Positions 23,312 through 24,241 of a DNA stretch of 27,695 bases are shown here, one piece after another. Position 1 is the stretch's first letter, and every line of letters begins with the position of its first letter. The notes beneath the pieces are model-generated. The model made no database searches. It was not told the DNA's origin and was given only the letters and a program-made list of their open reading frames with translations. Location of the stretch: the IMG/VR virus record IMGVR_UViG_3300045988_163776, positions 128,001 to 155,695 of that record. One strand, 5' to 3'. Position numbers and translations under genes: made by a program. The stretch is from a virus.

Positions 23312-24241
23312 ATGCAATTAAAGTATTCTCATGGCGCATTACTTTCTCCAAAAGATGATAGAGATTATTAGTTTACAGATTTGATTGCGGGAGTTCGTTT
23401 AAGCGAGCTCCCTTCTGAGTATATAAATCCTTTAGTTCATAATGTTCCTGTTGTGGATTAGGGGTAGTCAGAAACTTGCGTAGCTTGCTCATTAACGTAT
23501 TTACGCTGGCTAACCGAACGGACGCAATCAAACAATGAAAAACAATTCTCACCAAGCTATATCTACGGCAATAGAGATAGCTTTGGATACATGGGAGAAG
23601 GTATGATAGTGCGTGAAGCACTTCAAACTTTAAGAAAGCAAGGAGTTTGTTATTATGAAGATCTACCTGGTTTTTATGATGTACAGACTTCAATTAAACA
23701 ATATAGACAAAACAGAGATACGCTTGATCCTAAAGCATATCCTTTCAGAATTTCATCATTCTATGCAGTTAGTGGAATAGAAGGAATTAAGAATGCAGTT
23801 TATAATTTAGGCGGAGTAATAGTTAGTTATCCAGTTTATTATTGTCTATATTCTCCAGATAAAGAGGGAAAAATTCAATTTGATAATAGTGTGTAGAATT
23901 TCCAAAATGGTTATCACGCAATGACTATAGTAGGATGGACTTCTACACATTGGATAGTTCTTAATTCTTGGGGAAAGAACTGGGGTAAAGATGGAATCTG
24001 CTACATTCCTTTTAGTTATCCAATAGCAGAAGCTTGGGGAATAGTAGATCAAATTACGGAGGTTATATTTAAAATGGCAAAATTTATTGATACAGAAGGT
24101 CATTGGGCAGAACAGGCTATTGATAAGGCTGCTGACAAAGGTGTTGTAAGTGGCTTTGAAGATGGGCTATTCCATCCAGATGAACCAATCACAAGAGCAT
24201 AGTTATGTTCAATCCTTGATAGACTAGGATTGTTTAACTAA
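23312..24241 (+). CDS. papain-family (C1-like) cysteine peptidase fused to a C-terminal SLH domain; 5 in-frame TAG codons
   Basis: AAAGGAGAG RBS. Merges ORF-track pieces 23591-23896 and 23921-24202. VVD[TAG]G[TAG]SETC fits the papain Q-G-x4-C oxyanion-Gln/catalytic-Cys spacing. Also GYHAMTIVGW (His) and VLNSWGKNWGKDGI (Asn). The C-terminal FIDTEGHWAEQAIDKAADKGVVSGFEDGLFHPDEPITRA[TAG]LCSILDRL is SLH-like. TAGs at 23369, 23459, 23465, 23894 and 24200. Confidence 0.85.

Follow-up and report, generated by a model that had tools for sequence, protein, structure and literature searches.

A 27,695-nucleotide stretch of viral DNA (positions 128,001 to 155,695 of the IMG/VR record IMGVR_UViG_3300045988_163776; hereafter the window) carries, at 23312–24241 on the + strand, a gene for a 309-amino-acid protein in which a papain-family cysteine peptidase of the C1A type is joined to an SLH module, with five in-frame TAG codons read as glutamine. 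We consider it probable that this peptidase is a second lysis enzyme, released by the holin and targeted to the wall by its SLH module, which works beside a canonical lysis enzyme.

On this reading the protein would be a modular enzyme built of an N-terminal xylellain-type C1A peptidase, a short linker and one SLH module. Translation past codon 20 would need the phage's own amber-suppressor tRNA-Gln, and because there is no signal peptide the product is expected to build up in the cytoplasm late in infection; we infer that it would reach the wall only once the holin opens the membrane. There, the SLH modules of three chains would assemble into a three-pronged unit, as in the endolysin LysBT1, and this trimer would dock on the secondary cell-wall polymer of the host, concentrating the peptidase at the wall, where, in company with a conventional peptidoglycan hydrolase, it would hydrolyse peptide bonds of the envelope and so contribute to lysis.

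Domain architecture and active site

Translated with TAG as glutamine, the protein scores above the curated Pfam cut-offs for both domains, with Peptidase_C1 (PF00112) matched at 38.1 bits over residues 46–232 (cut-off 20.7) and SLH (PF00395) at 48.1 bits over residues 260–298 (cut-off 20.8), the latter as exactly one module; it also matches the 'peptidase' family PHROG 16701 (E 1e-21). A preliminary description, made from the letters of the window alone, had proposed a papain-like peptidase with a single C-terminal SLH module and a catalytic centre that is intact once TAG is read as glutamine, and these proposals stand: the motifs that it quoted are all present, as Q50-x5-C56 (QGQSETC), G200-YHAM and N218-SWG, in the order and with the spacing of papain. 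Codon 50 (TAG, 23459–23461) specifies the oxyanion-hole glutamine, at the position of papain Gln19 and six residues before the catalytic Cys56 (TGC, 23477–23479); the catalytic His202 lies in the GYHAM motif (CAC, 23915–23917) and Asn218 in the NSWG motif (AAT, 23963–23965). All four residues are invariant in alignments of 29 (A1) and 38 (A3) sequences, and among 71 distant members Cys56, His202 and Asn218 are kept in all and Gln50 in at least 90%. Databases yielded 51 further relatives, most of them with the same C1 and SLH architecture. Thiol-dependent hydrolysis of peptide bonds is the predicted activity.

AlphaFold2 models were made on two database relatives, P0001 (98% identical) and P0052 (99%). 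In the model of P0001, which has a predicted local distance difference test score (pLDDT) of 88, a disordered linker at residues 248–255 separates the catalytic domain from a two-helix SLH module. The best Foldseek match was xylellain (PDB 3OIS; E 2.5e-17, template modelling score 0.75), followed by papain, cathepsins and ficins (E 1e-17 to 1e-11 over all these matches), and the family profile scored 114 bits on xylellain 3OIS versus approximately 60 on cathepsins (cathepsin K). As modelled, then, the peptidase has both lobes of the papain fold and is a true C1A enzyme of the short xylellain type, and not a member of NlpC/P60 or CHAP. Pfam, the model of P0001, Foldseek and the family profile together place the xylellain-like catalytic domain at residues 1–247 (23312–24052, +), followed by a flexible linker at residues 248–258 (24053–24085, +; pLDDT below 50 at 248–255) and the SLH module at residues 259–309 (24086–24238, +).

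Neither a signal peptide nor a prodomain was found in the protein, there being no match to I29, and the catalytic domain starts near residue 8. Its start falls within the first 26 residues in 144 of the 150 top family representatives, so that neither a signal peptide nor a prodomain could precede it. The missing prodomain does not exclude membership of C1A, since its absence is typical of the short xylellain-type branch (PMC10380794). A catalytic domain joined by a linker to a wall-binding domain, with no secretion signal, is the layout of an endolysin.

Within the SLH module Gly277, Gly281, Thr294, Arg295 and Ala296 are invariant, and Trp265 nearly so, in a narrower alignment (A2), and sequence matches of the window protein in the PDB include the SLH region of Bacillus anthracis Sap (E 8e-6). 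The Trp, GIIxG and TRAE motifs of SLH modules serve ligand binding in LysBT1, Sap and SpaA (PMC12285257), and all three are retained here, as W265, G277-VVSG and T294-RAQ, the glutamine of the last, TRAE-type motif being encoded by TAG codon 297. By analogy, the peptidase may trimerise through this module and bind a pyruvylated secondary wall polymer or polyamine-modified peptidoglycan.

Reading of TAG as glutamine

The reading frame of the peptidase comprises 309 sense codons, ending with TAA at 24239–24241 and containing no internal TAA or TGA; an AGGAG ribosome-binding site, read from the sequence, lies at 23295–23299 (+), with the ATG 12 nt downstream. Its in-frame TAGs are codons 20, 50, 52, 195 and 297, which start at nucleotides 23369, 23459, 23465, 23894 and 24200. 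TAA and TGA together occur 11 and 26 times in the remaining two frames of the gene, so that openness over its whole length is very unlikely to arise by chance (approximately e^-18, as estimated from those counts). The standard code leaves only fragments of 101 and 93 amino acids, neither of which has Cys56 and His202 together.

A codon-level alignment of the peptidase gene with nine relatives contains 13 columns in which some phage has TAG; in 10 of them the TAG is exchanged for CAA or CAG in a different relative, seven times inside the recoded clade. The clearest is codon 50, the catalytic glutamine, which is TAG in the window and in two related contigs (L002 and L009), CAA in a 98%-identical contig (L008) and CAA or CAG in all six standard-code relatives. 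The window also supplies a means of decoding, in the form of an 88-nt amber suppressor tRNA with anticodon CUA at 16887–16974 (+), identified by ARAGORN, its cloverleaf fold and alignments. Its acceptor end is glutamine-like (U1-A72, G2-C71, G3-C70 and G73), and the sequence UGGGG...CCCCA with discriminator G is common to it and to the tRNA-Gln(UUG) of the window; its body resembles tRNA-Gln with an extra variable arm of approximately 17 nt. The phage Phass-1 likewise has an 88-nt Sup-CTA tRNA, next to a normal one of 72 nt. Judged by its acceptor end, the suppressor tRNA is predicted to have glutamine identity. Codon exchange, catalytic position and tRNA therefore agree, and directly show, at the level of sequence comparison, that TAG is read as glutamine, as the preliminary description had assumed.

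TAG accounts for 23–100% of glutamine-type codons in those open reading frames (ORFs) of the tail-fibre region that have more than one TAG, while nine other ORFs of the window contain none; the codon is enriched in late genes. The peptidase gene offers a clean natural case of TAG as glutamine, with the catalytic residue specified by TAG here and by CAA in L008, its 98%-identical relative; it would also exemplify a gene of the lysis module that needs a suppressor tRNA encoded by the phage itself for its translation. Recoding has been proposed to gate late and lytic genes (bioRxiv 10.1101/2021.08.26.457843), and the pattern in the window matches that proposal.

Immediately upstream of the suppressor tRNA lies an ORF for a 320-amino-acid Cys-rich protein with CxCDCG repeats (15039–16001, +), which has weak matches to DUF families only and, with 10 TAGs among 15 glutamine-type codons, the highest TAG density of the window. 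ARAGORN also reports two odd tRNA-like genes at 11037–11109 and 13082–13156 (+), one with a four-base anticodon (gatt) and one with a two-base anticodon (aa), which may be frameshift-suppressor-like, degenerate or artefacts of prediction. A GIY-YIG/NUMOD1 homing-endonuclease-like gene (9492–10130, +) sits inside the tRNA cluster.

Probable role in lysis and gene neighbourhood

The family to which the peptidase belongs is large, comprising 879 cluster representatives at E ≤ 1e-30, and is common on phage contigs of 100–220 kb. In seven independent standard-code lineages the C1 homolog adjoins a holin, a canonical endolysin or both. It directly follows a GH25 endolysin in the Thermoanaerobacterium phage THSA-485A. 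It stands between Phage_holin_1 and either a CHAP protein (L004) or an Amidase_2 protein (L057), in both cases as a C1/SLH protein, and in L058 a C1/SLH gene follows Phage_holin_4_1 and Amidase_2. In L010 two small transmembrane ORFs precede C1 and a GH25+CHAP+SH3 protein comes after it; L011 has transmembrane ORFs, C1 and then a Glucosaminidase+Amidase_2+PG_binding_1 protein, and L012 has C1 followed by Phage_holin_4_1 and GH25. Each of the seven lineages has a complete canonical endolysin besides the C1 enzyme, and in L004, L057 and L058 the SLH module is found on the C1 enzyme only and not on the accompanying endolysin. A separate, SLH-less branch of C1 proteins occurs in jumbo-size IMG/VR contigs of approximately 200 kb (L013, L017, L024, L028 and related loci), where it is flanked by a conserved 165-amino-acid ORF and a single-transmembrane ORF of 115–120 amino acids, neither of which has a Pfam or PHROG match; such loci may be lysis cassettes made wholly of unrecognised parts.

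For a domain census of the family, Pfam was run on 71 members of at least 300 amino acids. PF00112 was matched in all 71, and the partner domains were SPOR (11 members), Cu_amine_oxidN1 (11), SLH (9), fused Amidase_2 (2), fused Glucosaminidase (1) and PG_binding_1 (1); the names of viral structural relatives are consistent with this picture. By this census the C1 catalytic domain carries interchangeable C-terminal wall-binding modules across the family. In the Parageobacillus phage JGon-2020a the GH25 endolysin ends in an SLH tail that agrees with that of the window protein at 31 of 49 residues (63% identity).

These contexts bear on the suggestion, in the preliminary description, that the protein is a peptidase-type lysin. 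A role in lysis is upheld by the homologs in holin and endolysin cassettes and by the lack of a signal peptide; that of sole lysin is not, since a canonical hydrolase accompanies C1 in every readable cassette, and 'the lysin' therefore becomes a second, accessory lysis enzyme. The same constant company of a complete endolysin, with C1 never clearly the sole lysin, would also suit a wall-anchored protease whose job is not lytic, for instance one that activates or trims the endolysin or host autolysins, or one that remodels surfaces after release from lysed cells, with receptor removal or superinfection exclusion as the outcome. Papain-family enzymes are typically protein endopeptidases, which speaks for such a job, as does a secreted, SLH-anchored surface protein encoded by a near-identical phage (considered below with the host). 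Nevertheless, we regard a non-lytic function as unlikely: the fusions of C1 to Amidase_2 or Glucosaminidase and its pairing with SPOR and PG_binding_1 fit a direct wall-lytic partner better, and an enzyme with no signal peptide could not act before the membrane is permeabilised.

The bond that is cut could be in the stem or bridge peptide of peptidoglycan or in a wall-anchored or S-layer protein. The amidase and glucosaminidase fusions, together with the SPOR and PG_binding_1 partners, favour a peptide target close to peptidoglycan. A less probable alternative, which we still hold as a serious possibility, is that the SLH-docked enzyme, once released by the holin, cuts S-layer or SLH proteins instead of peptidoglycan, and that stripping of this protein layer would let the endolysin finish lysis and the virions escape. 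It would then be an S-layer counterpart of the spanins or of mycobacteriophage LysB, much like a phage-borne Cwp84. Such an outer-layer factor is consistent with C1 always being extra to an endolysin, with its protein-protease fold and with the restriction of SLH to the C1 enzyme in L004, L057 and L058; it is weakened by those family members that have SPOR, PG_binding_1 or amidase and glucosaminidase fusions instead.

Several observations weigh against assigning the window protein to lysis. A search for small transmembrane ORFs and Pfam runs on essentially all window ORFs yielded neither a holin nor a canonical endolysin in the window, and none was found in the 6–10 kb downstream in close relatives; for this reason the lysis-cassette argument for the window gene rests on homology, with relatives that are only 23–56% identical. 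The recoded clade has a different neighbourhood, with tail spikes upstream and a radical SAM gene downstream. PHROG 16701 is filed under 'other' and not under 'lysis', the recognised wall-degrading papain-like enzymes all fall into the NlpC/P60-CHAP-amidase cluster (PMC10318531), and C1A is not an established catalytic class of lysins. Elsewhere in the window, 22 kb from the peptidase, a 52-amino-acid ORF (864–1022, +) has a holin-like shape, with two hydrophobic, potentially transmembrane segments and a charged C-terminus (EKYINNKK), and no family match.

The position of the gene invites another explanation. All genes of the window, which has approximately 31% GC and 16 tRNA genes, are on the + strand, and the peptidase is the last gene of a TAG-rich late tail-fibre operon, preceded by a collagen-repeat fibre, an 810-amino-acid fibre-like protein with nine TAGs and a 155-amino-acid ORF; the last of these is tail-spike-adaptor-like, being similar to the N-terminal part of a Peptidase_G2 tail spike in L002. 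The operon ends at a strong intrinsic terminator at 24251–24282 (+), with a GC-rich hairpin at 24251–24272 (9-bp stem with 7 GC pairs, 4-nt loop) and a T-rich tail, which is the strongest of nine terminator-like sites in the scanned region (1.1 expected) and is predicted to close the tail-fibre/peptidase transcription unit. This arrangement would suit a tail-borne, virion-associated protease that breaches the S-layer or wall at the start of infection, an option that the preliminary description had also raised. The SLH region additionally shows similarity to the C-terminal part of a PHROG 'major tail protein' family, and trimerisation through the end of the protein would be in keeping with trimeric fibres. 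An entry enzyme is nevertheless quite improbable, as the protein has no recognisable virion-attachment or structural domain, its homologs in the seven lineages sit between holin and endolysin and not in tail modules, and an SLH tail of the same type is borne by a genuine, holin-adjacent GH25 endolysin. In Bacillota phages, moreover, lysis cassettes commonly come after the tail-fibre genes.

Downstream of the terminator, a promoter-like site (TTGACT-17-TATGAT with extended TG, 24305–24333, +; a match to the consensus only) precedes the next genes. Between the peptidase and the following gene lies an ORF of approximately 35 amino acids (MKLYIYKWDNDTF..., 24415–24522, +), with an AAGGAG ribosome-binding site upstream; it has no Cys and overlaps the start of the next gene in a different frame, and gene callers place a 35-amino-acid ORF at the matching position in two independent contigs (L062 and L063). 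That next gene (24509–25759, +) encodes a radical SAM/SPASM protein resembling peptide maturases (Pfam Radical_SAM, 56 bits). Its best-matching NCBIfam model is that of the PapB ranthipeptide maturase, at 159 bits and thus below the cut-off of 340, and it resembles the thioether-forming maturases PapB, SCIFF and CcpM; its best deposited match is in Phass-1 (34% identity).

This neighbour raises the idea that the peptidase is the leader peptidase of a phage-encoded cluster for a ribosomally synthesised and post-translationally modified peptide, trimming a Cys-rich peptide that the adjacent maturase has cross-linked. The adjacency of peptidase and maturase is kept in three recoded lineages, and a 389-amino-acid protein encoded two genes further downstream has invariant Cys-rich motifs that make it a possible radical SAM substrate. 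The pairing is found, however, in only five of 50 loci, all within the recoded clade, and lysis cassettes are the context of the wider family; the strong terminator and the promoter-like site lie between peptidase and maturase, a search for a conserved small Cys-rich precursor ORF was negative, a wall anchor would be unexpected on a leader peptidase, and Phass-1 has the maturase without the peptidase. We therefore give this explanation very little credence and retain that of an accessory lysis enzyme.

The radical SAM gene is followed by a conserved 221-amino-acid ORF with one TAG (25707–26372, +), syntenic in L008 and L002 and without significant Pfam, PHROG or NCBIfam match, and then by the gene for the 389-amino-acid protein, with two TAGs (26356–27525, +), syntenic in L008, L002 and L009. 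This downstream trio is thus kept in the window and L008, in L002 and, the 221-amino-acid ORF excepted, in L009; the contigs carrying P0052 end at the gene for that protein. The 389-amino-acid protein had been presented earlier as an NlpC/P60 partner of the peptidase, a classification that finds no profile or fold support, the one point of agreement being a Cys/His motif. R264, D266, C267, S268 and G269 (the R-x-D-C-S-G motif) and H346 are indeed invariant among its relatives, as are the motifs C10-x-G-C13-x-S-F-C17 and H-P-x-Q-C215-x-x-C218-N. The protein nonetheless gave no match to NlpC/P60 or CHAP, no Pfam match at all at E ≤ 10 and none in PHROG or NCBIfam; PF00877 was detected in none of 14 relatives, and no sequence relative was found in the PDB. 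Its AlphaFold2 model is confident only at residues 224–389, and Foldseek returned nothing from the PDB for this model at E ≤ 1e-3; alignment by hhalign with a true NlpC/P60 protein covered only a 15-column Cys motif (E 0.13), and with true CHAP proteins, too, nothing beyond the Cys motif aligned. In one relative, P0060, the protein is joined to a Phage_lysozyme2 domain (PF18013, 100 bits), which hints at wall hydrolysis and not at membership of NlpC/P60; the 389-amino-acid protein is a possible wall hydrolase. A 3D domain considered in longer relatives of this protein was withdrawn, having no Pfam support.

The ORFs at 1092–2735 (547 amino acids) and 5291–6700 (469 amino acids), both on the + strand, are paralog-like, with Cys-rich C-termini, no Pfam family and the common motifs LCLSxHPLDxxxxSxN and NKKxRxL. 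An ORF at 4257–5294 (+), in the early region, is weakly Peptidase_M28-like, under the Pfam cut-off.

Host and closest known systems

The preliminary description took the SLH module as a sign of a host with an S-layer or SLH-anchoring envelope, such as Clostridia, Bacillales or Negativicutes. The broad part of this holds, in that the host appears, on coarse clues, to be a member of the Bacillota with an SLH-binding wall; no choice among the three groups is supported, and only this broad assignment is possible. The clues are the SLH wall-binding domain on the peptidase and on the lysin of the Parageobacillus phage, the occurrence of relatives in Thermoanaerobacterium (THSA-485A) and Parageobacillus (JGon-2020a) phages, and the radical SAM gene, which is closest to that of Phass-1, for which its authors predict a Clostridia host. 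A single scan of genome contigs with alignment A2 gave only two matches in metagenome-assembled genomes, one from Bacillota, which is a further clue in the same direction, and one SLH-only match from Riflebacteria; it permits no prophage-based host assignment.

To these can be added an ORF of at least 826 amino acids in the 98%-identical contig L008 (IMGVR_UViG_3300045988_155865, 7350–9827, +), approximately 2 kb beyond the 3' end of the window, with a Sec-type signal peptide, three apparent N-terminal SLH modules, a long extracellular region and no TAG. It is predicted to be an SLH-anchored surface protein readable in the standard code; a moron is one possibility, and superinfection exclusion or remodelling of the surface are possible functions. 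Together with the SLH tail of the peptidase, this secreted SLH protein offers a host pointer, usable if coarse, for an uncultivated phage of approximately 125 kb.

Parts of the system are already known, namely the presence of xylellain-type C1A in tailed phages (at survey level; PMC10380794), an endolysin with one SLH module (LysBT1, 2025) and TAG-to-glutamine recoding of late and lytic genes. In the literature searched we found no account of C1A as a recurrent component of lysis cassettes, of its wall-binding partners or of its combination with SLH, nor any C1A protease described as acting in phage lysis or any phage lysis factor directed at the S-layer. Catalogues of phage lysis enzymes rely on a small number of catalytic domains, to which C1A does not belong, and the family would thus represent either an overlooked catalytic class of lysins or an accessory lysis step aimed at wall-anchored proteins. 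Whichever holds, it would be of use in designing enzybiotics and in explaining phage escape from Bacillota with S-layers.

As regards recoding, the window phage is alike to code 15 (TAG to Gln) phages such as Phass-1 and crAss-like phages in its late-gene TAGs and its phage-encoded Sup-CTA tRNA, and unlike Phass-1 in possessing the C1-SLH peptidase. Megablast with 25 kb of the window gave no nucleotide-level match to deposited phages, and tblastn with the 547-amino-acid early protein returned a weak fragment only.

For the catalytic domain, xylellain of Xylella fastidiosa (PDB 3OIS) is the best match in both sequence and structure, with an N-terminal D-x-R-D in common and no classical I29 prodomain; it differs in having no SLH or other wall-binding module and no known lysis cassette. 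Short bacterial C1A enzymes of this type were acquired horizontally by tailed phages according to the survey cited above (PMC10380794), which leaves the phage copies without an assigned function and does not touch on cell walls or SLH. A phage relative with a known, Clostridia-class host is Tsac_2838 of THSA-485A (NC_018264), annotated only as a peptidase ('peptidase C1A papain'), which is homologous to the catalytic domain (35.5% identity over 78% of the query) and lies immediately downstream of the GH25 endolysin Tsac_2839; unlike the window protein, it has no SLH module and is encoded in the standard code.

For the wall-binding end, a parallel is LysBT1, a biochemically characterised prophage endolysin of Brevibacillus thermoruber, which, as here, has a single C-terminal SLH module behind a flexible linker and in which that module brings about both trimerisation and attachment to cells by way of its Trp, GIIxG and TRAE motifs (PMC12285257); its catalytic domain is by contrast an N-acetylmuramoyl-L-alanine amidase. 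The GH25+SLH endolysin of JGon-2020a (CP063417, an unannotated record), encoded directly after Phage_holin_4_1 in a phage of a cultured Bacillales species, differs in its muramidase catalytic domain and in the standard code of the phage.

A functional parallel, in outline, outside phages is Cwp84, a papain-family protease tethered to a secondary wall polymer by a dedicated wall-binding domain and acting on surface-layer protein; it differs in being a secreted host enzyme with signal peptide and prodomain, and in carrying CWB2 repeats instead of SLH. Cwp84 was absent among the 60 best listed PDB sequence matches to the peptidase.

The established counterparts are the CHAP and NlpC/P60 domains of endolysins, which belong to the same superfamily of papain-like Cys-His hydrolases, occupy the same position in lysis cassettes and likewise carry swappable wall-binding domains. 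They fall into a separate cluster of that superfamily (PMC10318531), whereas the window enzyme has the two-lobed fold, the oxyanion-hole glutamine and NSWG; and the C1 enzyme is often found together with CHAP or amidase enzymes, not in their place.

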